Shown here: positions 13,348 through 36,856 of the stretch, piece after piece
How the letters are laid out: every line of letters starts with the position of its first letter
Numbering within the stretch: the stretch's first letter is position 1
From: Alphaproteobacteria bacterium
GTDB taxonomy: Bacteria; Pseudomonadota; Alphaproteobacteria; JAJFIK01
Assembly: GCA_028280665.1 (NCBI GenBank)
Contig: JANQLJ010000133.1
Span: forward strand, 9,901-73,900
DNA: 64,000 nt
Reading direction: 5' to 3'
Notes under the pieces: model-generated
Databases searched by the model: none
Told to the model about the DNA's origin: nothing
The model's input: the letters and a program-made list of their open reading frames with translations, nothing else
Translations under genes and position numbers: made by a program

Positions 13348-14151
13348 TCAGTCAGCAAACGCCCGGCGACTCATTTCGCTGTGAGGGTCCGCAAGAGCTT
13401 CGATGACATCGAAGTGGTGGCGCCCCGGGTCTTCGACAAACTCAACGCGCGCGCCTTTTGCTTTCCAGTCAGCGACAAAATCCCGCGACTGACGTAGAAA
13501 TTCAGGCCGCTCCTCCCCGCCCACCCAGGCGATGAGTTCCGCGCCCTCCCGCGGCTCAAGAAGGAGAGGACTTTCGGCGCGCGCGATTTCATCGGTGATA
13601 CGCAAACGCTCGTTCATTTGCGTGTGCCGCAGCGGCCGCAAGTCATAGAGCCCGCTAATGCCAACCGCGCGGCGGATGCGGGCCGCCACCTCCGCTTCGA
13701 TTGGTGCGCCCGCGCACATCATGCGCGCGGCCAGGTGTCCGCCCGCGGAATGCCCAGAAAGCACAATCGGCCCGGCACTTTCGCGGGCCGCCGCATGATT
13801 GAGGGCGGAGCCGATCTGCGCGGTGATCTCTCCAACCGAAACGTCCGGACACAGATCATATGAGGGCAGCATGGCCGCCCAGCCATGATCGACCGCCGCG
13901 CTTGCCAGATGCGACCAGGACGATTTGTCAAAATCGAGCCAGTAACCGCCGTGGACAAAGACAAAAAGCCCGCGCGCGGCGCCTTCGGGGAAAAAGAGGT
14001 CGTATCTTTCCCGCGCGCGCGCGCCATAAGGAATGTCGAGATCGTGGGCCGCAACCTCGCGGAAAGCCGCCGCCTCGCGGGCCCATAGGCCCGGGTAGCG
14101 CTCAGCGCCGGGAATGTAGGCCGCATTGGTGTAGGCGTCGTCCCAATCCAT
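13348..14151 (-). CDS. alpha/beta-hydrolase, arylformamidase (AFMID)-like; putative kynurenine formamidase
   Basis: HGGYW oxyanion motif and GHSAGGHLAA nucleophile elbow. Divergent from kynureninase. Confidence 0.6.
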   Translation of the reverse strand: MDWDDAYTNAAYIPGAERYPGLWAREAAAFREVAAHDLDIPYGARARERYDLFFPEGAARGLFVFVHGGYWLDFDKSSWSHLASAAVDHGWAAMLPSYDLCPDVSVGEITAQIGSALNHAAARESAGPIVLSGHSAGGHLAARMMCAGAPIEAEVAARIRRAVGISGLYDLRPLRHTQMNERLRITDEIARAESPLLLEPREGAELIAWVGGEERPEFLRQSRDFVADWKAKGARVEFVEDPGRHHFDVIEALADPHSEMSRRAFAD

Positions 14152-14249
14152 GACCCATTGTGCCGCCCGGCGCGGCGGCGAAGCAAGCGGGCTTGCCTCG
14201 GCCCGGCCAATACCGGAGAGTTGGCCGAACCCGCCCGATTGGGACTGTC

Positions 14250-15491: not shown

Positions 15492-15756
15492 CCCGCCCCA
15501 AGGTAAAGCCCGCCTGCCCGCGCCATCCGGGATACCCCCAAAAGCATCATGGTTGATGGTTCGGCGCTCCCCCCGTTGCGCGCGCTCGAATATCGTGATT
15601 TTCTCCGATACAGGCGTAACTTAGCGGGGATTGGCAAGACCGGGGCAGGCTTCAGCTTTCTTGACCCGGTTCTCACGCGGGACTTTCAAACCGGATGCAG
15701 AGTGCTTCCGGCAACGGCTCTTCCCGCGCGGTGCGGATCCGCATGGACTAAAACCG

Positions 15757-17553: not shown

Positions 17554-19406
17554 ACGTGGTCAGCGAGACCGCAGCGGGCACGCGCGTCAACGATTTCGTC
17601 ATCAAAATCGCCACCGTGAACGGCACGGGATCGGCGAGCGCCAATACGTTGCTCATGAAGACCGTGTTCCGCATGGGCGTACCGGTGGTGGGCAAAAACC
17701 TGTTTCCGTCGAACATTCAGGGCTTGCCTACCTGGTACGAAATCCGCATCACCAAGGACGGCTACCAGGCGCGCACCGGCGCGGTGGACTTGGCCGTCGC
17801 CATGAACGCGGACACCTACGATCAGGACCTCGAAAAAACTTCCCCCGGGGGCTATCTCATTTACGACAGCTCATGGCCGCGGCCCGAGCTGCTCTCCCGC
17901 GAAGACGTGAACGTGATCGGCGTGCCGCTCGCCTCCATGATCAACGAACGCTTCGACACGGCGCGCACCCGTGTCTTGATGAAAAACATGGCCTATGTGG
18001 GCGCGGTCGCCGCGCTGATCGAGCTCGACATGGACGTGATCCATGGACTGGTGACTGAAACCTTCGGCGAGAGCAAAAAACACCTGATCGACGCTAACAT
18101 GGAAGCCATCGATCTCGGCTTCCGTTATGTGCAGGAAAACTATGCCTGCCCCCTGCCCATCCGCGTGGAGCAGATGGACAAGACCGACGGTTACATCATG
18201 ATGGACGGCAATACCGCCGCCGCGCTCGGCTGCCTTTACGCGGGCGCGACCTTCGGCGCCTGGTATCCCATTACACCCTCGACCTCACTGATGGACGCCT
18301 TCAAGGCGTTTTGCGAGCGTTACCGCGTCGATGCGGAAACCGGCGAGCACAACTACTGCATCATCCAGGCCGAAGACGAACTGGCGTCCATCGGCATGGT
18401 GATCGGCGCGGGCTGGAACGGCGCGCGCGCCTTTACGCCCACCAGCGGGCCGGGCATCTCGCTGATGTCCGAGTTCATCGGCTTTGCCTATTACGGCGAG
18501 GTCCCAGCGGTAATCTTCAACGTGCAGCGCACCGGGCCTTCGACCGGGCTGCCCACGCGCACCCAGCAATCGGATATTTTGCTGTGCGCCTATGCCTCCC
18601 ACGGCGACACCAAGCATATTCTTTTGTTTCCCGCAGACCCCGAAGAATGCTTCGAGATGGCGGTGGAGGCCTTCGAGCTTGCCGAGTGGTTCCAGACGCC
18701 GGTCTTTGTCATTTCCGACATCGACATCGGTATGAACGACTGGATGGTGCCCAAGCTCAAGTGGGATGATGATTGGAAGCCCAACCGCGGCAAAATCCTC
18801 GATACCGAGCAGCTGGAGAAGATCGACAAGTTCTATCGTTACCTCGATGTGGATGGCGATGGCGTCCCCTACCGCACCTTGCCCGGCGTGCACCCCAAGG
18901 GCGCTTACTTCACGCGCGGATCGGGGCATGACAAGTACGGTCTTTATACGGAAAATTCCGACAAGTATCAGGACGTGCTGGACCGTATCGCGATGAAATT
19001 CGAGGGCGCTCGGGCGCGTGTTCCTGCGCCCGTCATTCGCAAGGCCGCCAAGAAAACGCGCTGGGGCGTTATTTCAGTGGGCAGCAGCCACGGGCCCGTT
19101 ATCGAAGCGGTGGACCGGCTGGCCGCCGAGGACATTCACCTCGATTACCTGCGCGTGCGCGGCTTTCCCTTTCATGACGAGATCGAGAAATTCGTTGCCG
19201 CCCACGATGCGGTCTTTGTGGTGGAGCAAAACCGGGACGGCCAGCTCAAGAGCCTGATCGTCAATGAAACAAATGCCGACAAGGCAAAGCTCAAGCCCAT
19301 TCTCTGGTACAGCGGCAAGGTGCCCGATTGCCGGTTCGTGGTGAACGGCATCAAGACTCAATTGGGCGAGGAAAAAATGAGCCGGGGAAAAGCGCAAGGG
19401 AGCTGA
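17550..19406 (+). CDS. korA: 2-oxoacid:acceptor oxidoreductase alpha subunit
   Basis: Start MNVVSETAAGTRVNDFVIKIATVNGTGSASANTLLMK; KorA/PorA-like. Track start 17454 is an upstream extension. Confidence 0.85.
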   Translation: MNVVSETAAGTRVNDFVIKIATVNGTGSASANTLLMKTVFRMGVPVVGKNLFPSNIQGLPTWYEIRITKDGYQARTGAVDLAVAMNADTYDQDLEKTSPGGYLIYDSSWPRPELLSREDVNVIGVPLASMINERFDTARTRVLMKNMAYVGAVAALIELDMDVIHGLVTETFGESKKHLIDANMEAIDLGFRYVQENYACPLPIRVEQMDKTDGYIMMDGNTAAALGCLYAGATFGAWYPITPSTSLMDAFKAFCERYRVDAETGEHNYCIIQAEDELASIGMVIGAGWNGARAFTPTSGPGISLMSEFIGFAYYGEVPAVIFNVQRTGPSTGLPTRTQQSDILLCAYASHGDTKHILLFPADPEECFEMAVEAFELAEWFQTPVFVISDIDIGMNDWMVPKLKWDDDWKPNRGKILDTEQLEKIDKFYRYLDVDGDGVPYRTLPGVHPKGAYFTRGSGHDKYGLYTENSDKYQDVLDRIAMKFEGARARVPAPVIRKAAKKTRWGVISVGSSHGPVIEAVDRLAAEDIHLDYLRVRGFPFHDEIEKFVAAHDAVFVVEQNRDGQLKSLIVNETNADKAKLKPILWYSGKVPDCRFVVNGIKTQLGEEKMSRGKAQGS

Positions 19407-19410
19407 AGAC

Positions 19411-20463
19411 ATGACATCCATCGCCAAGCCGCGCATTGAAAAGCACCTGTTGCGCAACAAGCTGGGCCTTACCTTGCGCGATTATGAAGGGGGCATGTCG
19501 ACCTTGTGCGCGGGCTGCGGCCATGATTCGGTCACCGCCGCCCTGGTGCGCGCCTTCTATGAGCTTGACCTTGAGCCCCATACCGCCGCCAAGGTGAGCG
19601 GGATCGGCTGTTCCTCAAAGACGACCGCTTATTTTCTGGGCCAAAGCCATGGGGTAAATGCCGTACACGGACGAATGCCCTCGATCGCCACCGGCGCGGC
19701 GGCGGCCAACGGCAATCTCCACTATGTGGGGGTCAGCGGCGATGGGGATTCGCTCTCCATTGGTCTTGGCCAGTTCTGCCATGCCATCCGGCGCAATCTG
19801 AACATGCTTTATGTGGTGGAAAACAATGGCGTTTACGGGCTCACCAAGGGCCAGTTTTCTGCTGCCGCCGATTATGGCTCCAAGTCCAAGCGGGGCGAGC
19901 CCAACCCCCATACGCCCATCGACCCGGTGAAGCTCGCGCTCACCCTCGGCGCCACATTCGTTGCGCGCTCGTTTTCCGGCGACAAGGAACAGCTCGTGCC
20001 TCTCATCAAGGCGGCGGTAATGCATAAGGGCTTTGCGTTGATCGATGTCATCTCGCCGTGCGTCACGTTCAACGACCATGCCGGTTCAACCAAAAGCTAT
20101 GCACATACTTATGAATACTATCACCGCGCGGTGCACACCGATTACATTCAGCCCTCTGAGGAAATCAAAGCGGAGTACAAAAAAGGCGAAGTAATGGAGG
20201 TGGAGCTGCACGACGGCAGCGTGATCGCGCTCAAAAAAGTCGATGACGACCTCAACCCGCGCGACCGGGGCGAGGTTCTGGCCTATCTCTCCCATCACGA
20301 GGCGCAAAGCGAAGTGGTGACCGGGCTTCTTTATATTGACGAGGAAAAGCAGGACATGAACGCGCGCAACAAGCTGCCGCCCGCGCCGCTCAACACCCTG
20401 CCTTACGAGCGCCTTTCCCCAGGGGCAGCAACGCTTGCCGACTTGCAAAAGGCCTACTGCTAA
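19411..20463 (+). CDS. korB: 2-oxoacid:ferredoxin oxidoreductase beta subunit (TPP-binding)
   Basis: CxGCGH cluster CAGCGHDSV; TPP motif GDGDSLSIG...VENNGVYGLTKGQ. Confidence 0.85.
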   Translation: MTSIAKPRIEKHLLRNKLGLTLRDYEGGMSTLCAGCGHDSVTAALVRAFYELDLEPHTAAKVSGIGCSSKTTAYFLGQSHGVNAVHGRMPSIATGAAAANGNLHYVGVSGDGDSLSIGLGQFCHAIRRNLNMLYVVENNGVYGLTKGQFSAAADYGSKSKRGEPNPHTPIDPVKLALTLGATFVARSFSGDKEQLVPLIKAAVMHKGFALIDVISPCVTFNDHAGSTKSYAHTYEYYHRAVHTDYIQPSEEIKAEYKKGEVMEVELHDGSVIALKKVDDDLNPRDRGEVLAYLSHHEAQSEVVTGLLYIDEEKQDMNARNKLPPAPLNTLPYERLSPGAATLADLQKAYC

Positions 20464-20545
20464 ACCCAACCGGGTTTGCGCGGGCACCCAATTTGGGCTT
20501 CACTTATTCTCAACTCAAATGCCCTTCGGAGAAAGAAACCGCATG

Positions 20546-22038
20546 AGCGTTGCATGAGCGAAGAGACCGCGCCTGCCGACACCCGCCGCGTGGCCGTCAT
20601 CGGAACCGGGTTTTCGGGCCTTTGCCTTGGCTATCACCTTAAAAAACGCGGCGTTCAGAACTTCACCCTGTTCGAGAAAGCAGGCCGCATCGGCGGCACC
20701 TGGCGCGAAAACACCTATCCCGGCGCCGAGTGCGACGTGCCTTCGGCGCTTTATTCATTTTCCTTTGAGCGCAACCCGCGCTGGACGCACAAATGGTCCG
20801 AGCAGCCGGAAATCCTTCGTTACATGGACCATTGCTGCAAAAAGTTCGGACTGACGCCTCATATCAAGTTCAACAAAGAAGTCACCGACACCGCCTTTGA
20901 CGAGGAAGCGGGCGTCTGGCGTCTCACCACCGCCGATGGAGAGACCGAACACTTCGACGTTGTCATTTCCGCCGTGGGCCAGCTTCACAAGCCGCAAGTT
21001 CCCGAGATCGAGGGCCGCGGTAGCTTCCAAGGCAAGATGTTCCATTCCGCGCGCTGGGATCATAACTATGATCTTAAGGGCAAGACCGTCTCGGTGATCG
21101 GCAATGCGGCGAGCGCGCTTCAGTTCATTCCGGAAATCGCACCGGACGTTCGTACCCTGAACGTCTTTCAACGCACCCCCAACTGGGTCTTTCCCAAAGA
21201 AGACCGGGAATACACGAAGTTCGAGAAGTGGCTTGGCTCCACCGTCCCCGCGACCAACAAGTTCTACCGCTTTTTGATCTGGGCGCGCGGCGAGGGCATG
21301 CTCTACCCGCTGATGAAGCAAGACACGCCCCAATGGTTGCGCAACCGCACGCGCAAGCAGGCGATTGAATATATGGAAGAGCACATCGAGGATCGGGAGC
21401 TGCGCGCCAAGCTGATCCCTGACTATCCCATTGGCGCCAAGCGCATTTTGTTTTCCGACAACTATTACCAGGCGCTTGCCCGCGAAAATGTAAACGTCTT
21501 GACCGACCCCATCGCGCGCATTTGCGAGACCGGCGTCGTGACCGCAAACGGCGCGACCTACTCCTCCGACACCATTATCTTCGGGACCGGGTTCATCAGT
21601 ACGGATTTTCTCACCCCCATGCGCGTGACCGGGCGCGGCGGTCAAGTGCTCAACGATATCTGGCGGGCGACCGGCGCGGAAGCGTACCTGGGGATTACCC
21701 ACACGGGGTTTCCAAACTTTTTCATGATGTACGGGCCGAACACGAACCTCGGTCACAATTCGATCATCGTGATGATCGAGGCGCAAACGCGCTATATCAT
21801 GTCGTGCCTCGATGAGTTGAAAGAGCGTGGCGCCCGGTGGCTCGACCTCAAGGCCGAGGCGCAGAAGGCCTATAACGAATGGATCGCCGCGCGCATGAAG
21901 AATATGATCTGGACGGCGGTTGAGCGTAGTTGGTATCTGCGCGACGGCCGCGTCACGAACAATTGGGTTGGCCGCACCACCGAATACATCAAGCGTACCC
22001 GGCAAGTAGAGCCGGAAAACTATGAATTCGCGACTTGA
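20546..22038 (+). CDS. flavin-containing / Baeyer-Villiger-type monooxygenase
   Basis: FAD motif VAVIGTGFSGL; BVMO/FMO fingerprint FQGKMFHSARWD (FxGxxxHxxxWD); second Rossmann motif SVIGNAASA. Confidence 0.75.
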
Positions 22039-22053
22039 CGAAAAACCGGATAA

Positions 22054-23178
<1,125 letters not shown>

Positions 23179-23194
23179 GGCAAGGCGGCGCGAG

Positions 23195-24637
23195 ATGGCC
23201 CGATCCGGCGATAAGCCCACACTTTCCACCAAGCTCTTTTACGGCTCAGGCTCTGTCGCCTATGGGGTAAAGGACGCAGGCTTTGCCTACTTCCTGCTCT
23301 TCTATTACTCGAATGTGTTGGGTCTCGCGCCGCAGCTTGCGGGGCTTGCTATCCTTTTGGCGCTTGTTTGCGATGCGATTTCAGATCCACTGGTGGGGCA
23401 TTTTTCCGATCAGCTTCATTCCAGATGGGGCCGCCGCCATCCTTTCATGTACGGCTCGATCCTGCCCATCGGGATTTCGTTCTTTCTCATCTGGAACCCG
23501 CCCGCGGGACTCGATCAGGCGGGGCTCTTTTTCTACATGTTCGGCATGGCGGTGCTGGTGCGCACCTGCGTCACCTTTTTCGAAGTGCCGTCCACCTCGC
23601 TGGTGGCCGAGCTGACCGACGATTACGACCAGCGCACCTCCATGCTCAGTTACCGGTATTTCTTCGGCTGGTGGGGCGGGCTTACGGTCGCGGTAATTGC
23701 CTACACCCTTCTTCTGGTGCCCGACGCGGACGCCGGCATCACCATTGGACAGATGAACCCCGAAGGTTATCAGCGTTACGGCATTCTCGCCGCGCTGATC
23801 ATGATGAGCTTTATTTTCATCTCGGCCCGTGGTACCCACCGGCACATTCCCAATTTGCACAAGCCGCCCCCGCCCAAGCCTTTCTCACTGCGCCGGACGG
23901 TGGCCGAGCTTCGTGAGACCCTGATTCACAGGCCGTTCCTTGCGCTCTTCTTCGCGGCCATCGTAACCGCCATGGCGCAAGGAGTTATCACAACCCTCAA
24001 TCTCTACTTTTGGACTTACTTCTGGTTTTTGGAGACCATCGACGTTGCGATCATCACGTCGGCGTGGTTTCTCGCCGCGGCATTTGCCCTGTTGCTTGCG
24101 CCGATCATCTCACGCGGACGGAACAAACGAAACGTCGTGATCGTCCTTTCGATCATCTCCACGTGCTACCTGCCGCTGCCGGTCATTTTGAAAACCCTTG
24201 GGCTTTTCTGGCCCACGGGGCACGAGCTTGTGGTCCCGACGCTGGTTCTGCATGGCATCACCGAAGGTACGATCATCATCTCGATCTCGATCCTGGTGAG
24301 TTCCATGGTGGCGGACGTGGTGGAAAGCAGCGAGATGGACACGGGCCGCCGCTCCGAAGGCCTGTTCTTCGCCGCGCGCAGCTTCGCCGCCAAGGTGGTG
24401 ACGGGCATCGGTGTTTTCATCGCCGCGACCATCATCACTATCGTTGGCATCCCGCGCGGCGCTGACCCGGCAGATGTGGACCCCGCCATCATGACGAACT
24501 TCGCGGCCTATTATGTGCCCACGATCATGTTCATCTATTTCGTCTCCATCGGCATACTGTCGCTCTACAAGATCAACCGCGAAGACCACGGCGAGCGGGT
24601 GGCGGAACTGCGCCAGCGGCGCGCTCAAGCGGATTAG
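23195..24637 (+). CDS. MFS transporter, glycoside-pentoside-hexuronide (GPH) cation symporter-like
   Basis: 12-TM-like hydropathy. N-terminal LSTKLFYGSGSVAYGVKDAGFAYFLLFY is typical of GPH family members. Confidence 0.65.
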   Translation: MARSGDKPTLSTKLFYGSGSVAYGVKDAGFAYFLLFYYSNVLGLAPQLAGLAILLALVCDAISDPLVGHFSDQLHSRWGRRHPFMYGSILPIGISFFLIWNPPAGLDQAGLFFYMFGMAVLVRTCVTFFEVPSTSLVAELTDDYDQRTSMLSYRYFFGWWGGLTVAVIAYTLLLVPDADAGITIGQMNPEGYQRYGILAALIMMSFIFISARGTHRHIPNLHKPPPPKPFSLRRTVAELRETLIHRPFLALFFAAIVTAMAQGVITTLNLYFWTYFWFLETIDVAIITSAWFLAAAFALLLAPIISRGRNKRNVVIVLSIISTCYLPLPVILKTLGLFWPTGHELVVPTLVLHGITEGTIIISISILVSSMVADVVESSEMDTGRRSEGLFFAARSFAAKVVTGIGVFIAATIITIVGIPRGADPADVDPAIMTNFAAYYVPTIMFIYFVSIGILSLYKINREDHGERVAELRQRRAQAD

Positions 24638-25380
24638 AGCTTGTGTGCCGCCAGCACCTCATAATCCGTATAGAGATCATCCAGCATGGGCTTTAGGTAA
24701 TCCGGCAAGGGATGGGGGCTTGCACTCGGCTTTTCAAACCCGGTGGATTTGAGCACCGCGCCGTACCAATGCTTCGCCCATACGCCGTCTTCGGGGCGCG
24801 GTCCCGGGGGCCAGGCCAGCATCTCCTCAAAGAACGGTACCTCCAGCGCCGCGCAAAGCGCCGTAAGGCAGCGCCGCGGATCGTTTAGAATATCCTCGCT
24901 GGCGACCACCGGCGGCGGCGCGCCTTGTACCCGCGTCACCTGGTCAAACAGCTCGCGCTGCAAGGTGATCCCTAGCTCTTCGGGTTTGAAAGGCACGGCC
25001 CCCCGCGCCGCCGCGTAAGAGCGCAGCATCATCTCCGGGTCGCGGATCAGGAAAAAATGCCGCGCACCCGCGAACCACTCGCGGCTCACCTGCGGCAACA
25101 TATGGTGGGTCATGCACTTGAGGAAATGGATGGGCTTGCCGCCGGGCACGGGCGCTTCGATCCGCGCGATGACTTCACGCCAATCGGTTTCATGGGTGGC
25201 GATCACCTCGTCCCGGCCCGGTTGCTCGATCCCCGTTTCCTTGAGATACCAGGTGTAAAAAGGCTCATCCCAGCACACCGTGTCGGGCCGGTTGCCCCAG
25301 GACCGCATCATCGCCGTGGAGATGTTACGCGGGCCCGACCACATGGCGATGCGCATACCGCTCATGCCCTGATCTTTCAT
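24634..25380 (-). CDS. sulfotransferase-like (P-loop) family protein
   Basis: N-terminal WSGPRNISTAMMRS resembles a PAPS 5'-phosphosulfate-binding loop. Start overlaps the stop of the upstream class IV aminotransferase (ATGA on the minus strand at 25377-25380). Assignment is tentative. Confidence 0.4.
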   Translation of the reverse strand: MKDQGMSGMRIAMWSGPRNISTAMMRSWGNRPDTVCWDEPFYTWYLKETGIEQPGRDEVIATHETDWREVIARIEAPVPGGKPIHFLKCMTHHMLPQVSREWFAGARHFFLIRDPEMMLRSYAAARGAVPFKPEELGITLQRELFDQVTRVQGAPPPVVASEDILNDPRRCLTALCAALEVPFFEEMLAWPPGPRPEDGVWAKHWYGAVLKSTGFEKPSASPHPLPDYLKPMLDDLYTDYEVLAAHKL

Positions 25381-26288
25381 GTGGAGGCTTTTTCGATCAT
25401 GGCGATGTAAGCGTCTTGCAGTGCCCTTGTGCGGGGCCCGCGCGCGCCATCGCCGATCACGCGCCCGTCCACTTCATGCACCGGCACGAGACCCGCAAAG
25501 GTGCCGGTAACGAAAGCTTCCTCAGCGCCATAAACATCCGTGAGCGAAAAGTTCTTTTCAAACACCGGAATATCGTTCGCCCGGCAAAGCTCGATCACTT
25601 TGCCCCGGGTAATGCCGCCCAGACAAAAACCGCCGGTGGAGGTCCACACTTCGCCCTTGCGCACAATGAAAAAATGCGTGGAGTTGCAGGTGGCGACGAA
25701 GCCGTGCGGGTCGAGCATTAGGGCCTCGTCCGCCCCCGCCTTCGCCGCCTGAATGCAAGCGAGGATGCAATTGAGCTTGGAATGGCTGTTGAGCTTGGGG
25801 TCCTGCACATCCGGGTAGCCGCGCCGCACATGGGCGGTAAAAAGCCGCAAGCCCTTCTCGCGCGCGGCGGGGTCCGGCGTTTTATATTCGGGGATAATCA
25901 CCACGGTGGCAGGGCCGACAGTCACGCGCGGGTCCTGATAGGGGGTCGCCTTCAGCCCCCGTGTCACCATAAGCCGGATGTGCACATCGTCGATCATCTT
26001 GTTGGCGGCAAGGGTGTCGTAAAGCGCGCTCTCCAGCTCCGTGGGGACAAGCCCCACATCCATGTCGAGCGCCTTGGCGCCTTCGTAAAGCCGGTCCAGG
26101 TGCTCGGCCAGGAACGCGATTTTGCCCTTGTGAACGCGCAAGCCCTCCCACACCCCATCGCCCAGGACGAAGCCTGAATCGAACACCGAGACCTTGGCTT
26201 CCACGCGGGGCACAAGCTCCCCGTTCACATAGATCACAATCTCCGCATTGCGCGGATCGTCCACATAATCGTGGCTGCCCATGGCCAT
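25377..26288 (-). CDS. class IV (branched-chain / D-amino-acid) aminotransferase
   Basis: 303 aa with fold-type IV PLP enzyme pattern ...EAKVSVFDSGFVLGDGVWEGLRV... and the conserved EAF motif. Confidence 0.8.
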   Translation of the reverse strand: MAMGSHDYVDDPRNAEIVIYVNGELVPRVEAKVSVFDSGFVLGDGVWEGLRVHKGKIAFLAEHLDRLYEGAKALDMDVGLVPTELESALYDTLAANKMIDDVHIRLMVTRGLKATPYQDPRVTVGPATVVIIPEYKTPDPAAREKGLRLFTAHVRRGYPDVQDPKLNSHSKLNCILACIQAAKAGADEALMLDPHGFVATCNSTHFFIVRKGEVWTSTGGFCLGGITRGKVIELCRANDIPVFEKNFSLTDVYGAEEAFVTGTFAGLVPVHEVDGRVIGDGARGPRTRALQDAYIAMIEKAST

Positions 26289-26377
26289 GGCGAAAATATC
26301 CTCAACTGATCGCTTCCCGCTGGACCTTGCCCGTTTCCCATTTCAATATGCAAGCCTGCAAAGACGGGAAGCGCGGG

Positions 26378-27814
26378 ATGACAGGTTTCAAGGACTACGA
26401 CGATTACGACGCGGTGGGGCTCGCTGGGCTGGTAGCGAACAAGGACGTGAGCGCGGAAGAATTGCTCGACGAGGCAATCGCCCGCACCGAGCGCATCAAC
26501 CCCGCCATCAACGCAGTGACCCACAAGCACTACGACGAAGCGCGCGCCGCCATCGATGCCGGTCTTCCGGATGGCCCCTTCAAGGGTGTGCCGTTTCTCA
26601 TTAAGGACCTGCACCTGCTCCTGACTGGCACCGTGACCACGTTCGGCTCGGCGCTTTTCAAGGACTACAAGGCCGATCACGACGCAACCCTGACCGAACG
26701 CTACAAGAAGGCGGGGCTGGTGATTTTCGGCAAAACCAACACGCCGGAGTTTGGGCTTACGGTAACAACGGAGCCGCGTCTTTTTGGTCCCACCAAGAAC
26801 CCTTGGAGCCTCGATCACAGCCCGGGCGGCTCGTCCGGCGGGGCGTCCGCCGCGGTGGCGGCGGGGATCGTCCCCCTTGCCAATGCCTCGGACGGGGGCG
26901 GGTCGATCCGCGTGCCCGCGGCCACCACCGGCACCTTCGGTATGAAGCCCACGCGCGGGCGCACCCCCATGGGCCCGGACCGGGGCGAAGGCTGGGCGGG
27001 CCAGTCGATCAGCCACGCCATCTCGCGGTCCGTGCGCGACAACGCCGCGCTGCTCGATGCCACGTGCGGCACCGCGCCGGGCGACCCTTACGAGGTCGCA
27101 CCCCCTGTCCGGCCCTTTGTTGAGGACGCGGCGCGCGACCCGCGGCCCTTGCGCATCGCCAAGTGGACCACGCGGCCCGACGGCACAACGCCGGACGCCG
27201 AAGTGATCAAGGCGGTAGATGATGCGGCGAAACTGTGCGAATCGCTCGGCCATCATGTTGAAGAGGCAACGGTGGAGATCGACGCCGCTGAGCTTGGCCG
27301 CGCGCAGGTCACGCTGATCGCCGCCAATACCGCCCTTGCGGTGGACGCGAGACTTGCCATGCTGGGGCGCGAGTTGCAGCAAGGCGACCTTGAACACTCG
27401 ACCATGCTGATGGCGGAGATTGGCCGCAGTGTCACCGGACCTGACTATGTGGCGGCAACGCAGTTCATGCACCAGCTCGGCCGCCGCTTCGCGGGCTTTC
27501 ACGAAACCTATGACGTCTATCTTTGCCCGGTGCTCGGCATGCCGCCGGTAACACTCGGCACCATCGACATGATGAGCGAGGACACTGAAACTTACACCAA
27601 CCTGCTCCGCGCCTATTGTCCCTATACGGGCATGTTCAACATGACGGGGCAACCTTCTATGTCCGTGCCGCTTTACTGGACGGATAAAGGCCTGCCGGTG
27701 GGAACCATGTTCACGGCGAAGTTCGGCGACGAGGCGACGCTGTTTAGCCTCGCGGGCCAGCTCGAACGCGCGCGGCCCTGGGCGCAAAAGCGCGCACCCC
27801 ACTGGGCGGCATAG
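26378..27814 (+). CDS. amidase (amidase-signature family)
   Basis: AS signature [33 protein letters not shown]. Start moved to [16 protein letters not shown] at 26378. Confidence 0.8.
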
Positions 27815-28984
27815 CTAGGCTTTCAGCCTGGAGGCCTGCACGCCCGACTTCTGAACTTCGTCGATGGAGCGCCAGCCCATCATCATCATGTCGCGGACAA
27901 GTTCAGCGCGCATGAGTTTGAGCACATGCTCCACCCCCGCCTGCCCACCCGCGGCAAGGCCATAGAGATATGGCCGCCCGAAGGAACAGGCATCAGCGCC
28001 CAGCGCCAGCGCTTTCAGCACATGCGTGCCCCGGCGCACGCCGCCGTCCACAATTAGCTCCAGCCGGTCGCCGATGGCATCGCGCATGGGCGCCACGCAA
28101 TCGATGGGCGCCGGGACCCCATCGAGTTGCCGCCCGCCATGGTTCGAGATCATGATCGAGGTGGCACCCACTTCCACCGCGCGCTTGGCATCGTCCGTGG
28201 ACTGAAGGCCTTTGATGGCAAAGGGCCCGCCCCATTCTTCGATCATCCAGCCCACATCATCCCAGGTGACCGAGGGGGTAAGCTCGTTGTTTACATATTG
28301 AACGAGACTCGTGTCCTGGCCCTCGAGCGCTTCGGCCCGGTGCGCCACATTGGAAAGCTCAAAGCCCGGGTTTTTCGCGAGATTAAGCGCCCATTTGTAG
28401 TGGTAGATAAAGCTGGCGAGACTGCGCAAGGTCAGCTTGGGCGGCATGGACATGCCCCAATGAATGTCGCGCTCGCGGTTGCCCGCAATGGGCAGGTCCA
28501 CGGTCAAACAAAGCGAGGTAAAGCCCGCCGCCTTGCAGCGCTGAATGAACTCACGCGCAAGGCCCTTGTCCCTGAACACATAAATCTGGAACATTTTCGG
28601 GCCGTCGGTGGCGGCGCCCACATCCTCGATACTGGTGGTCCCCACGGTGGAGAGGGAATACATGGTGCCGGACTTGGCGGCCGCCCGCGCCGCGCCGAAT
28701 TCTTTGTCATGGTGAAACAGGCGCGTCATGCCGGTGGGCGACAGGAACACCGGCATGGAAATCTCCGTGCCGAAAATTCTGGTCTTAAGATCAATCTCCG
28801 CCACGTCGATCAGATAGCGCGGCATCAGCTCGTAATCTTCAAAGGCTTCGGTGTTGCGGCGCAGGGTCCACTCATCGTCGCCGCCGCCGTCGATATAGTG
28901 AAAGAGCGGCGCGGGCAAAGCGCGCTTGGCCAAAGGCCGGAAACCCATCACGCTGGTCACTTTGTCAAAGCGCGCCATGCACAT
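27815..28984 (-). CDS. FMN-dependent alpha-hydroxy-acid dehydrogenase/oxidase (LldD / mandelate dehydrogenase family)
   Basis: N-terminal ...RALPAPLFHYIDGGGDDEWTLRRNTEAFEDYELMPRYL... and C-terminal SNHGGRQLDG are typical of the family. Confidence 0.8.
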   Translation of the reverse strand: MCMARFDKVTSVMGFRPLAKRALPAPLFHYIDGGGDDEWTLRRNTEAFEDYELMPRYLIDVAEIDLKTRIFGTEISMPVFLSPTGMTRLFHHDKEFGAARAAAKSGTMYSLSTVGTTSIEDVGAATDGPKMFQIYVFRDKGLAREFIQRCKAAGFTSLCLTVDLPIAGNRERDIHWGMSMPPKLTLRSLASFIYHYKWALNLAKNPGFELSNVAHRAEALEGQDTSLVQYVNNELTPSVTWDDVGWMIEEWGGPFAIKGLQSTDDAKRAVEVGATSIMISNHGGRQLDGVPAPIDCVAPMRDAIGDRLELIVDGGVRRGTHVLKALALGADACSFGRPYLYGLAAGGQAGVEHVLKLMRAELVRDMMMMGWRSIDEVQKSGVQASRLKA

Positions 28985-29079
28985 ATCCTCCCCGGAATTT
29001 TGCGCGAGTTTCGGCCAAAAGTGAGCGCGCCGTAAACCCTTGATCGGGCAAATCTGTAAGTTGAGGAGATCGCTTAGCC

Positions 29080-31785
29080 TTAGCCCGCGTTGCGGCGCTC
29101 GTTATCGGGTTCGTCCGGCGCCGCCTCGGGATTGGCGGAGCCTTCCTCGGCGGAAAGACCCTTCAGCTCGTCGGTGAGACCGCGAAGCGCATCGTGAATG
29201 GCCGAGAGCTCGTTTTCAGGAGGCGGGGTTTGCGACACACGCTGGCTTGCGCCTGTTGCCGGGGTCCTGACACTCTGCCCAAAGAAGCTTTTGCGCGGGG
29301 GCACCTTACCGCCGCGGGCGATCTGACCGGAAAGCCCGTCGATCCGCGTTTTCAGGTCGGCGGACGTATCTCGCATGATGCCCGAAAGCCGGTCCTGATG
29401 ACGCACAAGGGTTTCCATCATCTCATCGAGCTGCAGCCGGACGCCGCTCACGTCGGTGGTCTTAAGGCGCCGGGCAATTCCCCTGAGCCCATCGCGCAAG
29501 GCAAGGGCCATGGCTTCTTGCGCATCACCCATGGAGCCTTGAAGTGCCTCGACGCGGGCGATTTGCTCGGCAAGTGCCGGCGAGGGGCCAGCGTCCCGCG
29601 CGGCAACGGCTTTTGCAAGCGCGCGAAGTTCCACCGCCATTTGCCGCCCCGTTTCATCGAGCCGGTCGATGCGCGGGTCCAAGAGCGCCGTAACGTCCGT
29701 AGGCGGAATGATCTCCGCCTCGCCGCCCACAGGCACTTGCGGCACTTCAGCAAGGCGGGTTTGCAGGTTTTCTAGCGCGTCGGTGAGCTCTCCCGCCGCC
29801 TCGTTCTGCGCCGTGATCTTCGTGTTCAGGCGGTCGGAAAGGTCGAGCAAGCCGGTTGCGATCACGTGCTCGAAGGATCCGTTCTGGCTGTCGATCTTCT
29901 GGCCAAGTTGATAGACCGCGTTGGAAAGCGAACGTTGCGATGTTAGCGCCTGATCCTCGACGGCGCGGGTCAAGTGCGTCACCGCCTGGCCCATTTCATC
30001 GCGCAAGGCGCCAAGCACGGGCGAAAGATCAAGCGGCAATTCAATAGACTGGTTGATCGACGCCAGTTGCGCATCGAGGCTCTTGAGTGTGTATGCCAGG
30101 GTTTCTACCTGATCGCTGACGGCGCGGCGTTCGTGCTCGAACGTCATGTGCATGTCAGAGAGGTTTGTGGTGACGCCGCGGATCACATTGGCCTCGCCGA
30201 TAAAGGCGGCTTGCGCCTCGCCAAGGGCCGATTGGATGGCCGCGAGTTGCTGGTTAAGATGTTCGGCAACGCTTCCGCCCGAAGCTTTGAAGTCTTCGAT
30301 TTGCGCCTTGAGGTCCGCAAGTTCCCCGGTCATGCGTTCGAGCTTGCCGGGAAGGCCCTCGCTCTCCTCGCCCAGCGCGTTCGCGAGGCTATCCACCCGC
30401 GCCGCGGTTTCGCCAAGCTGCGCGATCATGTTTGTCGCCTCGTCGCGCAACTCGCCGCGTTCGGATTGCCAATGGGCGCGGTCGGCCTGGGCTTCGGACA
30501 TCACCGCAAGGCGCGTGTTGCGCGCGGCTTCCGCTTCCTTCGCCATGAGAACCGTTGCCGCTTGCGCCGTTTTGCCTGTGAGGTTGAGCTCCTTGACCGC
30601 CTTGTCGAGGGCGCCCATGGCGCCTTCCATGGGCGGGCCCGCCCGGTCGGCGAGTTGGCGCAGGCGGCCCAGCGCCTGATCGAGCGTGCCGATCTGGCCA
30701 TCGAGCGCAGAGAGGTGCGCGGTAAGTTCCTCCCGCGCCTGGGCGGTGGAGGTGTTGATGGCGTGCTGCTCGTTGCGCCAGGTCTCGGTAAAGTCGCTAA
30801 GTTCTTGCGTAGCGTGAGTGACGCGCGCGCCGGCGGTCGCGGTTGATTCCGCAAGCCGTTCTGAGGTGGCGCTCAAGCGATCAAGCTCGCCGCGCATGGC
30901 CTCGGCCAACTCGGTCATATCACCGCGCCAGCTTCCTTCTGTTTCAGCAAGGCTGTGGCGCGTGCCTTCAAGATCGCCCGCCACGCGCCGGACTTCGTCA
31001 CCCGCCGCCGCAAGGGCTTCAAGACGCCCGGCTGTTCCCGCCACCGCTTCATCGAGGGCGGTTTCGATGCGCGCCATGGCCTCGCGGCTTTCCCCGGCAA
31101 GCCCGTCGCGCGAATCGGAAAGGGCGCGCGCCGAGCCGCGCAAATCTTCCGTGGCCTCGGTGATATGGGCGAGCGCCGCATCCACCGCTTCGGCGCCGGA
31201 GCCTTCAAGACGCAGGCGCAAGGCGCCGTCGACGCCGACGGTCAAAAGCCGGCCCGCCTGAAGCTGGGTGCGGCGCAGGTCTTCGGCCACCCGCGCCACC
31301 ATGCCGATCTCGTCGTTCCGCTCGGTCCCGGGCAGGCTCCAGTCTTCTTCGTCGGCGAGCAGGTTTTCGAGGTTTTCGGAAAGTTTCCGCAAAGGGCGCC
31401 GCACATTGAGATGCAACAAAAGCGCGGTCAGTCCCAGAATAAAGACCGCCGCCCCGAGGGCGAGGCTGGTAATCCAGCGCTGAAGGGTCAAAACGCCGAT
31501 GGCGCTTTCGATCTGCTGCGCCTGGTCTTCGGCGGAAAGCGTTTGTTCCACCGCTACCGCGTCCGACAGCCGATCGCGGGCATCGAGCCCCATGGTGTTG
31601 GTCACCGCCGCCGCCACGACCAGCAAGACAAACAAGAAGACGGCGCCTATGACCAGAAACCGTCCGGTCAGGGTGAAAGACGTCAGTTTCGTTTTGAGCA
31701 TAGCGATGGCCCCAGTACGAGAAACGGCAATCCCCGTTCCCCCCTTGGCCATATTCGCCAAAGATGGCCTGCAGAAATGGCTCAC
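29080..31785 (-). CDS. membrane-anchored HAMP-domain protein with ~750-aa coiled-coil tail (no recognisable output domain)
   Basis: Two TM segments (FLVIGAVFLFVLLVVAAAV; ITSLALGAAVFILGLTALLLHL). HAMP-like RPLRKLSENLENLLADEEDWSLPGTERNDEIGMVARVAEDL. Remainder is heptad-rich A/E/L/R repeats. Track start 31785 is GTG; ATG alternatives at 31752 and 31701. Confidence 0.5.
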   Translation of the reverse strand: MSHFCRPSLANMAKGGTGIAVSRTGAIAMLKTKLTSFTLTGRFLVIGAVFLFVLLVVAAAVTNTMGLDARDRLSDAVAVEQTLSAEDQAQQIESAIGVLTLQRWITSLALGAAVFILGLTALLLHLNVRRPLRKLSENLENLLADEEDWSLPGTERNDEIGMVARVAEDLRRTQLQAGRLLTVGVDGALRLRLEGSGAEAVDAALAHITEATEDLRGSARALSDSRDGLAGESREAMARIETALDEAVAGTAGRLEALAAAGDEVRRVAGDLEGTRHSLAETEGSWRGDMTELAEAMRGELDRLSATSERLAESTATAGARVTHATQELSDFTETWRNEQHAINTSTAQAREELTAHLSALDGQIGTLDQALGRLRQLADRAGPPMEGAMGALDKAVKELNLTGKTAQAATVLMAKEAEAARNTRLAVMSEAQADRAHWQSERGELRDEATNMIAQLGETAARVDSLANALGEESEGLPGKLERMTGELADLKAQIEDFKASGGSVAEHLNQQLAAIQSALGEAQAAFIGEANVIRGVTTNLSDMHMTFEHERRAVSDQVETLAYTLKSLDAQLASINQSIELPLDLSPVLGALRDEMGQAVTHLTRAVEDQALTSQRSLSNAVYQLGQKIDSQNGSFEHVIATGLLDLSDRLNTKITAQNEAAGELTDALENLQTRLAEVPQVPVGGEAEIIPPTDVTALLDPRIDRLDETGRQMAVELRALAKAVAARDAGPSPALAEQIARVEALQGSMGDAQEAMALALRDGLRGIARRLKTTDVSGVRLQLDEMMETLVRHQDRLSGIMRDTSADLKTRIDGLSGQIARGGKVPPRKSFFGQSVRTPATGASQRVSQTPPPENELSAIHDALRGLTDELKGLSAEEGSANPEAAPDEPDNERRNAG

Positions 31786-32018
31786 AGAAACAGGGCGTTT
31801 TGCGTGGCCCTACGGTCCGCGCTTCTGGTTAAGGACTTGTTAATGATCGTAAAGGGGTAAGGAAAACCGGGGTGAAGGGCGGCCGCAGGTTAAATTTACC
31901 AAAAAAGTTGCACGGTTAACTTAGGCCCGTCTTAGCAACTAACAGGCAAAATGCAGAAGACCTGAGAGGTGTGTCTTGGTGAGTGCCACAACTGTTGCGC
32001 ATAGAGGCGCAGATCAAG

Positions 32019-32429
32019 ATGGTGAAGACAGCAAAACGTAAAGCCGGAAATGAGAGTGGCGCCGCGGCCGTCGAGTTTGCAATGGTGGTCCCGCTACTGC
32101 TTACATTGGTGCTGGGCACCATGGAAGCCGGGATGCTTTTTCAACTCAAAAACTCCATGACGTTTCACACGCGCGCCATCACGCGCGAAGTGGCCCTGGG
32201 GTCGCTTGACGGGAGTAATGCTCCGGCGGAATTGACCTCGCGGCTCGCGGGCTACGCTCAGCTCAATTACAACGTTTCGGTCACCGTGCCGGACCCCAAT
32301 GATCCGAACGACACCGATGTGGTTGTAACGGTCTCGGTCGCACAAACCGACCTTGAAGCCTACGCTATCACTGGCGTGCTTGTGATGGGAGACTATTCGA
32401 CCACGGCAACGATGCGTTCGCTGGAGTAA
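32019..32429 (+). CDS. TadE/TadF-like pseudopilin
   Basis: N-terminal AAAVEFAMVVPLLLTLVLGTMEAG, the TadE-like N-domain. Confidence 0.6.
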   Translation: MVKTAKRKAGNESGAAAVEFAMVVPLLLTLVLGTMEAGMLFQLKNSMTFHTRAITREVALGSLDGSNAPAELTSRLAGYAQLNYNVSVTVPDPNDPNDTDVVVTVSVAQTDLEAYAITGVLVMGDYSTTATMRSLE

Positions 32430-32433
32430 GATC

Positions 32434-33744
32434 ATGACACCGACAAAACCCACTTGTCCGTTCTGGCGTGCGTTTGCTAAGAACGAGGGCGGCTCGGCCA
32501 TACCCCTTGTCGCGTTGACAATCGTGGTCGCCACCGCCATGGCGGCATTCGCGGTTGATTTGAGCTACGTTTACCGGACCCAATCACAGCTTCTGACCGT
32601 TGCCGAAGCCGCCGCGCTTGCCGCCGCAAGCAAGCTACCGGATGAAACTGACGCCCTTGATCTTGCTCTCGAATACGCCGGGCTGAATCTTGAAAGCGCA
32701 CGGTTCACCGGTGCGGTTGAGGCGGCGGATGTGCGGTTCGGCAGTTGGGATCAAAGCACCGCGACCTTTACCGAAGACAGCTCGGGCGAGGCGGTCGAGG
32801 TGACCGCATCGCTCACCGGGCAAAAGGGCAATGCGATTCCGTCATTTTTGGGCGTAGTTCTTGGCCGCGACCAATTCGATGTCTCGACGACCGCCATCGC
32901 CACAACCTCGCCGGGATCGCCCGCCTGCATAACGGCGCTCGATCCCAATGGCTCAAAAGCGCTGTGGCTCGACTCAAATGCCGAGATACAAGTAAACGGC
33001 TGTGAGATCGTCGTGAACTCAAACCACGGACGGGCGCTCTATGCCGAGAGCAACAGCGCGATTCTTGATGCCGAACGCGTGTGCGTTGTCGGCGGCACCT
33101 TTACCAGCGAAAACAGCACGATAAATCCTGCGCCTGAAAATGGCTGCCCTCCTGTAGTCGATCCCTTCGCCCATCTCACGGAACCGCTTTATGGCGGCTG
33201 TGACTACAATAACCTGACCTTCGAGGAGGAAAACACAACGCTGTCCCCGGGTGTTTACTGCGGCGGCCTCAGGATCAGGAGCAATTCGAACGTTACCTTC
33301 AATCCGGGCATCTACATCATCAAAAATGGCAAGCTCGTCATCGAGCAAAACTCGACCGCTTCCGGCGTTGGCGTCGGCTTCTTTCTGACGGGCGGGAGCG
33401 GCCGTCTGGAATTCACCAGCAACGCCATAGTTGACTTCACCGCCCCCTCATCCGGGCCCCTAGAAGGCGTGGTATTTTTTCAAGACAGAAACTATGGCGG
33501 GACACACAAGATAGAAAGTAATAACGTAAGCGACCTGCTCGGCGCCATCTACCTTCCTGAAGGCAACCTTGAACTCAACAGCAACGGTGCAATTTCCCCA
33601 ATGGGAGGGTGTACACGGATCATTGCCCACCGGATCTTGTTTGAACAAAACAGTACGTTGAATCTCGACGCCGACTTTTCACAGTGCCCGGGTGGTGGCT
33701 CCAGCAGTTCCGGCGGCGGCAGCATGGTCCGCTTGCGCAGATAA
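32434..33744 (+). CDS. TadG-like large pseudopilin with N/S/T/G-rich C-terminal (beta-helix-like) domain; putative tip adhesin
   Basis: N-terminal AIPLVALTIVVATAMAAFAVDLSYVYRTQSQL is a TadG N-domain. C-terminal 250 aa has repeated NS/NST motifs, then GGGSSSSGGGS. Confidence 0.6.
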   Translation: MTPTKPTCPFWRAFAKNEGGSAIPLVALTIVVATAMAAFAVDLSYVYRTQSQLLTVAEAAALAAASKLPDETDALDLALEYAGLNLESARFTGAVEAADVRFGSWDQSTATFTEDSSGEAVEVTASLTGQKGNAIPSFLGVVLGRDQFDVSTTAIATTSPGSPACITALDPNGSKALWLDSNAEIQVNGCEIVVNSNHGRALYAESNSAILDAERVCVVGGTFTSENSTINPAPENGCPPVVDPFAHLTEPLYGGCDYNNLTFEEENTTLSPGVYCGGLRIRSNSNVTFNPGIYIIKNGKLVIEQNSTASGVGVGFFLTGGSGRLEFTSNAIVDFTAPSSGPLEGVVFFQDRNYGGTHKIESNNVSDLLGAIYLPEGNLELNSNGAISPMGGCTRIIAHRILFEQNSTLNLDADFSQCPGGGSSSSGGGSMVRLRR

Positions 33745-33919
33745 AGCCCCGAGGATGCGCCAGCCGCTGGCCATCATACAGCCGTAGATTCTACTCACCG
33801 GTCAGTATACTGACCGCTTGTCACAGCAAGCGTCCTTGCGGACAGCACGGCGCTTGATGAGCCGGATGGGTAGCACTTTTCTGCAAGGCACCTGAAAGAA
33901 TAGCGGTGATGGCTGCGCG

Positions 33920-34438
33920 TCAGCTGATGCGTTCAACCATCGGCACGCGGCGGGGCCGCGCGAAGAAGCGGTCGGTCAATTCCACTTCATCGGTGAGAAA
34001 ATACCCAACCAGGGTCGAGTGAACATAGCGCACGTCCACGACCACGACGCTGGCGTTCGTGGTCAAGATCCCTTCGGGCAAATCCCCAACGGTGAAGCTA
34101 CCCGCGCCGCCGTTGAAGGTGTCGGTCCAATCGATTTCCGTGGTGCCGCCATTGTCGATCACGCTGACCACCGTCACCGAGAAATCGTCCGAGGGAAACG
34201 GCTGCAGCAACGCGGTCGCCACCGCATAGATGTCTTCCATTTCGCTGTCGGTCAGTTCGACATCCTGCGCGACCAGGTCGGCCACCGCGCTGGTGACGGT
34301 CGTCACTTTCCGGTCGATAATCAGAATGTTGGAAACTTCAACGCTCGCAAAGAAGAGCACGATCATAATCGGCGCGATGAGCGCGAACTCCACCGCCGCG
34401 ATGCCGCCTTGCGCTTTTTTAAATCGTTTGAAAAACAT
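33920..34438 (-). CDS. TadE/TadF-like pseudopilin
   Basis: GGIAAVEFALIAPIMIVLFFASVEVSN N-domain. Track start 34459 is TTG; first ATG (MFFKRFKK) at 34438. Confidence 0.6.
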   Translation of the reverse strand: MFFKRFKKAQGGIAAVEFALIAPIMIVLFFASVEVSNILIIDRKVTTVTSAVADLVAQDVELTDSEMEDIYAVATALLQPFPSDDFSVTVVSVIDNGGTTEIDWTDTFNGGAGSFTVGDLPEGILTTNASVVVVDVRYVHSTLVGYFLTDEVELTDRFFARPRRVPMVERIS

Positions 34439-34455
34439 GGCTGATCCCGCCTCTG

Positions 34456-35013
34456 TCAATTGCCGAGGGCACTGCCGAACGGCTCGTTCCGGAAAGCCGT
34501 GCTGGCCGAAAGAAGCCGTTGCGTCCCACCATTCATGTTCGCCATCACAAATCCCACGCCCGGCGTAAACACGTTCCAGCTATAGAATGTGCGAACCAGG
34601 ACAATATCGCCGCCGCCGCCGGCGTCGAAAGCCGGGTCGATGGTAAACTCACCGTCTTCGTTGATGGGATTTGCGAACGCAACCGAGCCGAACTCGTCGA
34701 ACGTTTGCACTTCGACCGTCAATGAATCGCAATCGAGCATCATGTCGATGCGGTCGCAAAGCTCGTCCTTGAACTGGGCACCGGTCATCGCGGCTTGCTG
34801 TGCCTGGCCCGTGCGAATAAGGCGCGAAGTCTCAAGCAAACCGTTTTCAAGTGTAACAGAGGCAAAGAAAATCATTGTCGATTCAACAACCGCAAAGATC
34901 AGTGCAAAGAACGGTCCCACAATCATCGCGAACTCAATCGCGGTTGATCCGGACGTGTTTTTGCGGAACCGGTCAAACAATCTCTTCAAAGAAAGGCGCA
35001 ACATAACGCTCAA
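34456..35013 (-). CDS. TadE/TadF-like pseudopilin
   Basis: GSTAIEFAMIVGPFFALIFAVVESTM N-domain; 4-nt overlap with the downstream pseudopilin gene. Confidence 0.6.
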   Translation of the reverse strand: MSVMLRLSLKRLFDRFRKNTSGSTAIEFAMIVGPFFALIFAVVESTMIFFASVTLENGLLETSRLIRTGQAQQAAMTGAQFKDELCDRIDMMLDCDSLTVEVQTFDEFGSVAFANPINEDGEFTIDPAFDAGGGGDIVLVRTFYSWNVFTPGVGFVMANMNGGTQRLLSASTAFRNEPFGSALGN

Positions 35014-35125
35014 CCCTTTTTGCGGTCTTTACCGCAGCAGATTGCACCTGGCGGCGTAAAGACTTCGCAAAGAGACTTGGTAAACTTGTTAACTAGTCCC
35101 GGCGTTTTGAGAATTTAGTTCAAAT

Positions 35126-36856
<1,731 letters not shown>

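Follow-up and report, generated by a model that had tools for sequence, protein, structure and literature searches.

A widespread bacterial gene pair of a putative PAPS-dependent sulfotransferase and an aminotransferase-like protein without the catalytic lysine

The canonical class IV enzymes, which include the branched-chain aminotransferases (BCATs), D-amino-acid transaminase (DAAT), aminodeoxychorismate lyase (ADCL) and the (R)-amine transaminases, all keep their catalytic lysine. Here we describe a gene pair from a 64,000-nucleotide stretch of DNA of an Alphaproteobacteria bacterium (assembly GCA_028280665.1, contig JANQLJ010000133.1, positions 9,901 to 73,900; referred to throughout as the window), in which a protein with the same fold and the same phosphate-binding residues but without this lysine, the AT4-like protein, is encoded beside a sulfotransferase of the Pfam family PF19798 (Sulfotransfer_5), here called ST5, with 3'-phosphoadenosine-5'-phosphosulfate (PAPS) as its predicted sulfate donor. 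The same two domains are found in the plant proteins BCAL1/2, which like the window pair combine PF19798 with PF01063 (Aminotran_4), carry PAPS motifs and have no catalytic lysine. In BCAL1/2 these form a single polypeptide in the order ST5 then AT4-like, with a class IV domain of a His/Glu type (clade B, below), whereas the window holds two open reading frames (ORFs) in the order AT4-like then ST5, with a class IV protein of an Asn/Thr type (clade A); the plant domain order is the gene order of clade B.

Several other described systems resemble one half of the pair. A solved structure, PDB 7Z79 ('Aminotransferase, class 4'), is a clade A member like the window protein, with which it shares the motifs LNSHS(R/K)LN and SSCNSTNFF, and is 66% identical to an ST5-adjacent Azospirillum protein; it forms a hexamer, and we take its source organism to be Variovorax paradoxus. 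PDB 9J32 is 7Z79 with only an Asn to Lys change at the catalytic column, and its depositors evidently noticed the same lysine anomaly. Searches of the literature returned nothing on the function of PF19798, on 7Z79 or 9J32, or on any association of sulfotransferases with class IV proteins. Among sulfotransferases, the 'activating' enzymes of CurM and olefin synthase (OLS; PDB 4GBM, 4GOX) are polyketide synthase (PKS) domains that act on carrier-protein-bound beta-hydroxyacyl chains with a thioesterase as partner, and are just 16-21% identical to ST5. The CyrJ-type and other PF19798 sulfotransferases of biosynthetic clusters belong to the same Pfam family as ST5 and lie beside the PAPS-supply genes cysC/cysD; unlike ST5 they have no class IV partner and sit in a nonribosomal peptide synthetase (NRPS)/PKS setting. 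Finally, ColD and E1 are aminotransferase homologues in which the lysine is replaced by histidine and which act as pyridoxamine 5'-phosphate (PMP)-dependent 3-dehydratases in deoxysugar synthesis, eliminating a leaving group beside a ketimine, and by analogy they may offer a precedent for the His-type clade. They are of fold type I, use nucleotide-sugar substrates and have no sulfotransferase, whereas the window partner is of fold type IV and has Asn rather than His at the lysine position, with a histidine (His169) two residues on.

Conservation of the pair in bacteria and its fusion in plants

To place the pair among bacteria one genome per GTDB species was scanned, giving at least 579 loci with an ST5 relative, of which 80 were kept and searched for the partner by tblastn with the window proteins. 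An AT4 homologue adjoins ST5 on the same strand in 67 of these 80 species-level loci, far beyond chance, and 3 or 4 further loci break off at a contig edge. The pairs come from Alpha- and Gammaproteobacteria, Verrucomicrobiota, Planctomycetota, Chloroflexota, Actinomycetota, Gemmatimonadota and Bacteroidota, and thus span at least seven phyla, in both gene orders. There is no third conserved gene, as no third family occurs in more than 13 loci after all-against-all clustering of the 3456 ORFs of the 80 loci, and a Pfam census of 113 flanking ORFs gave 137 families with none in more than 3 loci. PADLOC returned no match to an anti-phage defence system. Furthermore, from locus to locus the pairwise identities of the AT4-like proteins track those of ST5 (r 0.32, where permutation reached at most 0.15), most clearly inside clade B (r 0.76). 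The pair is a real functional unit, as the preliminary description of this DNA had suggested from the adjacency of the genes and from the fused plant proteins. Its self-contained occurrence in variable contexts, the plant fusion and the correlated divergence lead us to infer that the two proteins probably act on the same small and common metabolite, likely in physical association.

The plant form was retrieved with a bait sequence, and the evidence for it is the database entries themselves; searches seeded with the bacterial proteins returned no plant proteins, the candidate lists being filled by close bacterial homologues. In at least 120 proteins from land plants, among them A. thaliana, Brassica, Glycine, Nicotiana and Nelumbo, the precomputed domains are PF19798 and then PF01063; the chains are about 555 residues long and go by the database name 'branched-chain-amino-acid aminotransferase-like protein 1/2', and they bear out the single-chain architecture that the preliminary description had claimed. 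The window ST5 is 35% identical to residues 7-237 of the A. thaliana entry P0392 (555 residues; E 1e-44), and the AT4-like protein is 44% identical to its residues 259-545 (E 9e-77). Histidine stands at the catalytic lysine column in 120 of 120 plant fusions, and most keep both PAPS motifs, with SAPRSLST as the 5'-phosphosulfate loop. The papers that name BCAL1/2 appear from title and abstract to be omics, quantitative trait locus (QTL) or genomic studies, among which no function for the protein was found, and the accessible part of a plant sulfotransferase survey that used PF19798 gives only an algal match in its supplement. Some plant entries of 920-960 residues (P0390, P0424, P0449, P0471 and P0490) contain PF10294, a methyltransferase domain of the FAM86 type, besides ST5 and AT4-like; they may reflect either the merging of adjacent gene models or a three-domain form that recurs.

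Single-chain fusions were also looked for in bacteria, and the candidates were rejected as frameshifted gene calls from metagenome-assembled genomes. A chimeric ST5 plus AT4 profile retrieved about 18 proteins with both PF01063 and PF19798, mostly ENA records (P0269-P0283, P0295, P0306). Seven of the two-domain bacterial proteins were inspected and show long out-of-frame stretches, rich in Arg and Pro, that lie between the domains or inside them; the remaining ones have irregular lengths of 382-570 residues. An ST5 profile run against 1.84 billion representative proteins found 4724 members, with none of about 550 residues among the best 150 of the 4724. Such frameshift-merged entries would inflate the count of bacterial fusions in domain-architecture data.

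The 248-residue ST5 protein matches PF19798 with an E-value of 2.8e-52 (177.8 bits, cutoff 23.2), and its matches by sequence and by predicted fold are PAPS-dependent sulfotransferases, the predicted fold being that of a sulfotransferase rather than of a nucleotide kinase. The sulfotransferase signal anticipated for this protein is therefore strong, although as Sulfotransfer_5 and not as Sulfotransfer_3, the family that had been named, which scores 17.5 bits and falls under its cutoff; NCBIfam holds no model for it. Two putative PAPS-binding motifs are present (Table 1). The first, SGPRNIST, is presumably the counterpart of PKSGTT or PRSGST in characterised sulfotransferases, a correspondence drawn from known motifs rather than from a structure-based residue alignment, and across 18 diverse ST5 homologues its residues S15, G16, P17, R18, N19, S21 and T22 are invariant. 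So are R113, P115 and S121 of the second, RDPEMMLRS, which aligns to 'vRhPysvieS' in the CurM sulfotransferase domain. Judged by these residues ST5 looks like a functional sulfotransferase, most likely with PAPS as donor. PF19798 members 30-34% identical to ST5 lie in NRPS/PKS clusters beside cysC/cysD. One case, on a Dolichospermum plasmid (CP070234.1, 116977-133771), encodes a PF19798 sulfotransferase with 34% identity to the window ST5 in the order PKS, amidohydrolase, 2-oxoglutarate-dependent oxygenase, MATE transporter, amidohydrolase, sulfotransferase, cysC; from its gene content this would be a cylindrospermopsin-like (cyr) cluster and the sulfotransferase CyrJ-like.

Within the window the two genes meet in an ATGA that contains both the TGA stop of the AT4-like gene and the first candidate ATG of ST5. 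This overlap, which the preliminary description had reported, is confirmed by the ORF positions and by the minus-strand letters of the junction, '...gcctccac ATG A aagatc'. The ST5 frame has further ATGs at M6, M9 and M13, all within 36 nucleotides of M1, ST5 homologues begin 1-12 residues ahead of the conserved RIAMWSGPRN motif, and no good Shine-Dalgarno sequence precedes M1, for which reasons the real start may lie up to 24 nucleotides downstream; the gap between the genes is at most 24 nucleotides whichever start applies. Overlaps of 4 nucleotides are commonplace in bacterial operons. In 27 loci in which AT4 precedes ST5, a median of 14 nucleotides separates the AT4 stop from the RIAMW motif, so the close spacing is a family-wide trait, and it is this conservation, not the overlap itself, that exceeds chance. 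The two genes are co-transcribed and are probably translationally coupled.

Active site of the AT4-like protein

The 303-residue AT4-like protein matches PF01063 over the full domain (E 2.3e-41) and lies under the curated cutoff of all 18 NCBIfam models for BCAT, DAAT and ADCL, the best score being 261 bits against a cutoff of 363 (NF006185). Its nearest solved structure is PDB 7Z79 (E 2.7e-101 over 295 residues), and its nearest canonical relatives are the archaeal BCATs 5MQZ and 5CM0 (E 1e-60), in which 'ppnIKSLNYLNNILA' aligns with 'dpkLNSHSKLNCILA' of the window. In this alignment the Schiff-base lysine is replaced by Asn167, the tyrosine at O3' of PLP by Lys171, and the glutamate that pairs with the pyridine nitrogen of PLP ('SEGSGDN') by Thr200 ('ATCNSTH').

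These replacements are a property of the family. In a MAFFT alignment of 62 ST5-adjacent AT4 homologues with the two archaeal BCATs, none of the 62 paired proteins has lysine at the catalytic column, and the homologues form two clades. Clade A (n = 30), which includes the window protein, has Asn in 30 of 30 members at the lysine column, K/R at the tyrosine column and T/S at the glutamate column. Clade B (n = 32), drawn mainly from Verrucomicrobiota, Planctomycetota and Chloroflexota, has His in 32 of 32 at the lysine column and Leu at the tyrosine column, and keeps the glutamate. The rest of the pocket is held constant throughout: the phosphate cup is invariant (R51, T227, T261 and T263; the Arg of EGxR and the Thr residues of GITR and TGT), as is the carboxylate-binding R105, now within an H-x-R motif (H103, R105), and neither clade shows variation at K113 or K136, two lysines that the BCATs do not have. 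Mean identity within clades is 62-71% for the AT4-like proteins vs 47-57% for ST5.

This pattern shows that the AT4-like pocket is under strong purifying selection, as would be expected of ligand binding at least, though not necessarily of catalysis. An internal aldimine could not form at the usual place, which makes ordinary transamination by the AT4-like protein unlikely. Because its phosphate cup and carboxylate site are intact and its pocket has gained cationic residues, it may instead bind a phosphorylated cofactor of the PLP/PMP type or a sulfated ligand, plus an acidic substrate.

Neighbouring genes

The features of the locus are collected in Table 1. An amidase, a dehydrogenase dependent on flavin mononucleotide (FMN) and a transporter of the major facilitator superfamily (MFS) lie around the pair exactly as the preliminary description had placed them. 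The MFS transporter and ST5 genes, stop codons included, overlap at their ends by 4 nucleotides (24634-24637), leaving no room for a terminator between them. A promoter scan of 23000-29200 detected no consensus sigma-70 site in the short stretch that separates the divergent AT4-like and amidase genes.

Table 1. Coordinates of the gene pair, its motifs and its immediate neighbours in the window
Feature	Position	Strand	Remarks
MFS_2/GPH-type transporter gene	23195-24637	plus	convergent with ST5
ST5 gene	24634-25380	minus	248 residues, Sulfotransfer_5 (PF19798); PAPS the predicted sulfate donor
RDPEMMLRS motif, residues 113-121	25018-25044	minus	putative R-x-P...S motif for the 3'-phosphate of PAPS
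SGPRNIST motif, residues 15-22	25315-25338	minus	putative 5'-phosphosulfate (PAPS) loop
ATGA junction	25377-25380	minus	shared by the AT4-like stop (TGA) and the first candidate ST5 ATG
AT4-like gene	25377-26288	minus	303 residues, Aminotran_4 (PF01063)
LNSHSKLN motif, residues 166-173	25770-25793	minus	Asn167 at the catalytic Lys column; Lys171 at the Tyr (O3' of PLP) column
Intergenic region between AT4-like and amidase genes	26289-26326		divergent; presumed promoter of the two-gene operon, by inference
Amidase gene	26327-27814	plus	divergent from the AT4-like gene
FMN dehydrogenase gene (FMN_dh)	27815-28984	minus	convergent with the amidase

The amidase, FMN dehydrogenase and MFS genes occur near the pair in none of the 80 species-level loci. 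Their arrangement recurs only in close relatives with an ST5 that is 74% or 63% identical to that of the window: the divergent amidase is kept in three related lineages (the window, L085/L086 and L087) with the FMN dehydrogenase nearby in all, the MFS gene is missing in L087, and in the relatives other genes intervene between the FMN dehydrogenase and the amidase. In L087 (ST5 63% identical) a gene of the MamF/MmsF family is found between these two, at 3591-3995 of that locus. The wider arrangement is synteny by descent and not a conserved pathway, and the three genes stand outside the AT4-like/ST5 unit. The catabolic route that had been proposed from them, running from uptake and hydrolysis through transamination of a D- or branched amino acid to the interconversion of 2-hydroxy and 2-oxo acids, loses its neighbours in 80 of 80 loci, and its transamination step conflicts with the Asn167, Thr200 and Lys171 that replace the cofactor-contacting lysine, glutamate and tyrosine.

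Further out, the upstream side holds an alpha/beta hydrolase (13348-14151, minus), a kynureninase-like class V PLP enzyme (14160-15491), a set resembling a 2-oxoacid:ferredoxin oxidoreductase (Fer4/Pyr_redox_2 15631-17553, POR/POR_N 17454-19406, TPP_enzyme_C 19411-20463), a Baeyer-Villiger-type flavin monooxygenase (20476-22038) and a class III alcohol dehydrogenase (22066-23178). The order oxidoreductase set, flavin monooxygenase, class III alcohol dehydrogenase is kept in L085-L087, and in the window lineage the alcohol dehydrogenase is one or two genes from the pair. A Zn-dependent alcohol dehydrogenase gene also stands directly upstream of ST5 and AT4-like in three actinobacterial loci, L027 (4982-7708), L058 (6891-9606) and L081 (6295-9600), all three genes being co-oriented, with a gap of 20-40 nucleotides in L027 and L058. 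This proximity may be chance, or may hint at an alcohol or carbonyl substrate. On the other side of the region lies a minus-strand gene (29080-31785) for a 901-residue, probably coiled-coil protein rich in Ala, Glu and Leu, with a hydrophobic segment at its N-terminus, faint Pfam matches below cutoff (Baculo_PEP_C, DUF1664) and a homologue at the same place in L085. It is followed at 31983-36856 by a Tad/Flp pilus accessory gene cluster that comprises two TadE-like genes (31983-32429 and 33920-34459), a TadG-like gene with Tad and Tad_C domains (32434-33744) and a gene with Tad and VWA domains (35126-36856).

A model for the AT4-like/ST5 module

We propose that the pair is the bacterial two-gene form of plant BCAL1/2, in which a PAPS sulfotransferase and a lysine-less fold type IV partner share a compound, a reading to which we give slightly better than even credence. 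Our best guess at its role is a PAPS-dependent sulfation module whose partner protein binds or processes a sulfated acid. ST5 would move sulfate from PAPS onto a small carboxylate-bearing metabolite, and the lysine-less AT4-like partner, with the invariant cationic residues K113 and K136 that it has gained and K/R171 in addition in clade A, would then bind or process the sulfated compound in some capacity other than that of a transaminase. The partner could do so as a His-assisted lyase of the PLP/PMP type, in a scheme of 'activate with sulfate, then eliminate or replace', or it could serve as a subunit that binds the acceptor or the product. By analogy, the most attractive mechanism would be the first of these, because of the precedents given by the PMP-dependent dehydratases ColD and E1 and by the CurM sulfotransferase domain, LGS1 and retinol dehydratase. 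In these last three sulfation installs a leaving group, and all three are among the fold matches of ST5.

Several observations weigh against this model. A catabolic elimination would be a wasteful use of PAPS. About 10 of the 80 loci have an ST5 without an AT4 partner inside 8 kb, and no alternative partner was seen at these ST5-alone loci. The correlation of identities is absent inside clade A (r 0.03), and an AlphaFold2 prediction of an AT4 and ST5 chimera gave a predicted template modelling (pTM) score of 0.62 and no confident docking, although its set-up was weak, a monomer prediction on a shallow paired alignment, and speaks neither for nor against a complex. The clades also differ at the cofactor site, Asn with Thr/Ser in one and His with Glu in the other, so that one shared chemistry is not guaranteed. 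Finally, K113 or K136 could in principle be a relocated Schiff-base lysine, which would restore the chemistry of a transaminase.

The main rival to a lyase-type mechanism is a non-catalytic binding subunit: the AT4-like protein would be a pseudoenzyme acting as a scaffold, as an allosteric or ligand-sensing element or in presenting the acceptor, and ST5 would do all the chemistry. We regard this as a genuine possibility of distinctly lower probability than our own model. The catalytic lysine is lost in every member, clade A is without the cofactor-contacting glutamate and tyrosine as well, and the PF19798 sulfotransferases of biosynthetic clusters work without such a partner; an obligate complex of this kind would also fit the plant fusion. 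What a pseudoenzyme does not readily explain is that the phosphate cup and the residues H103, R105, K113 and K136 do not vary between phyla, that the lysine has given way to a clade-specific invariant Asn or His and not to drifting residues, and that within clades the partner is better conserved than ST5 itself.

That a working class IV aminotransferase for D- or branched-chain amino acids is co-expressed with ST5 in a catabolic route with the MFS transporter, the amidase and the FMN dehydrogenase is in our view unlikely. All five domains are indeed present as arranged, the divergent amidase persists in three related lineages with the FMN dehydrogenase nearby, and the invariant K113 and K136 are potential relocated catalytic lysines. 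Yet all three cofactor-contacting positions are changed in the window protein, the NCBIfam BCAT and DAAT models stay under their cutoffs, the amidase, FMN dehydrogenase and MFS genes are found neither in the 80 loci nor in the flanking census, and even among relatives the MFS gene is lost in L087 and genes come between the amidase and the FMN dehydrogenase.

A chemistry new to both families, in which the lysine-less protein holds a PLP/PMP enamine or aminoacrylate while ST5 delivers a sulfuryl group, or installs a sulfate that the partner displaces, is in our estimation very unlikely. A speculative candidate for it would be the '2-aminoacrylate sulfotransferase' reaction, from PAPS to L-cysteate, for which we know of no firmly assigned gene. 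The step is present in algal metabolic models (PMC7990286). A merely accidental adjacency, with unrelated genes sharing one operon in this genome, can be dismissed, for although a 4-nucleotide overlap by itself is common in bacterial operons, the genes adjoin in 67 of 80 loci in at least seven phyla and in both orders, among otherwise unrelated flanks, and the domains are fused in plants.

Each half of the unit belongs to a well-known superfamily, and databases already show the plant fusion in their annotation. What our proposed two-gene form of BCAL1/2 adds is a pair conserved from Verrucomicrobiota and Proteobacteria to land plants with an active-site signature that contradicts the annotated 'aminotransferase' role. 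The AT4-like/ST5 module is a widespread conserved unit for which the aminotransferase annotation is misleading, and among the database entries that label such proteins 'aminotransferase class IV / BCAT', thousands are probably in error. A fold type IV protein with a Lys to His or Asn change, tied to a PAPS enzyme, points to an undescribed sulfation-linked reaction, and the bacterial two-gene form offers a tractable route to the function of plant BCAL1/2, for which the 7Z79 and 9J32 structures should be helpful.

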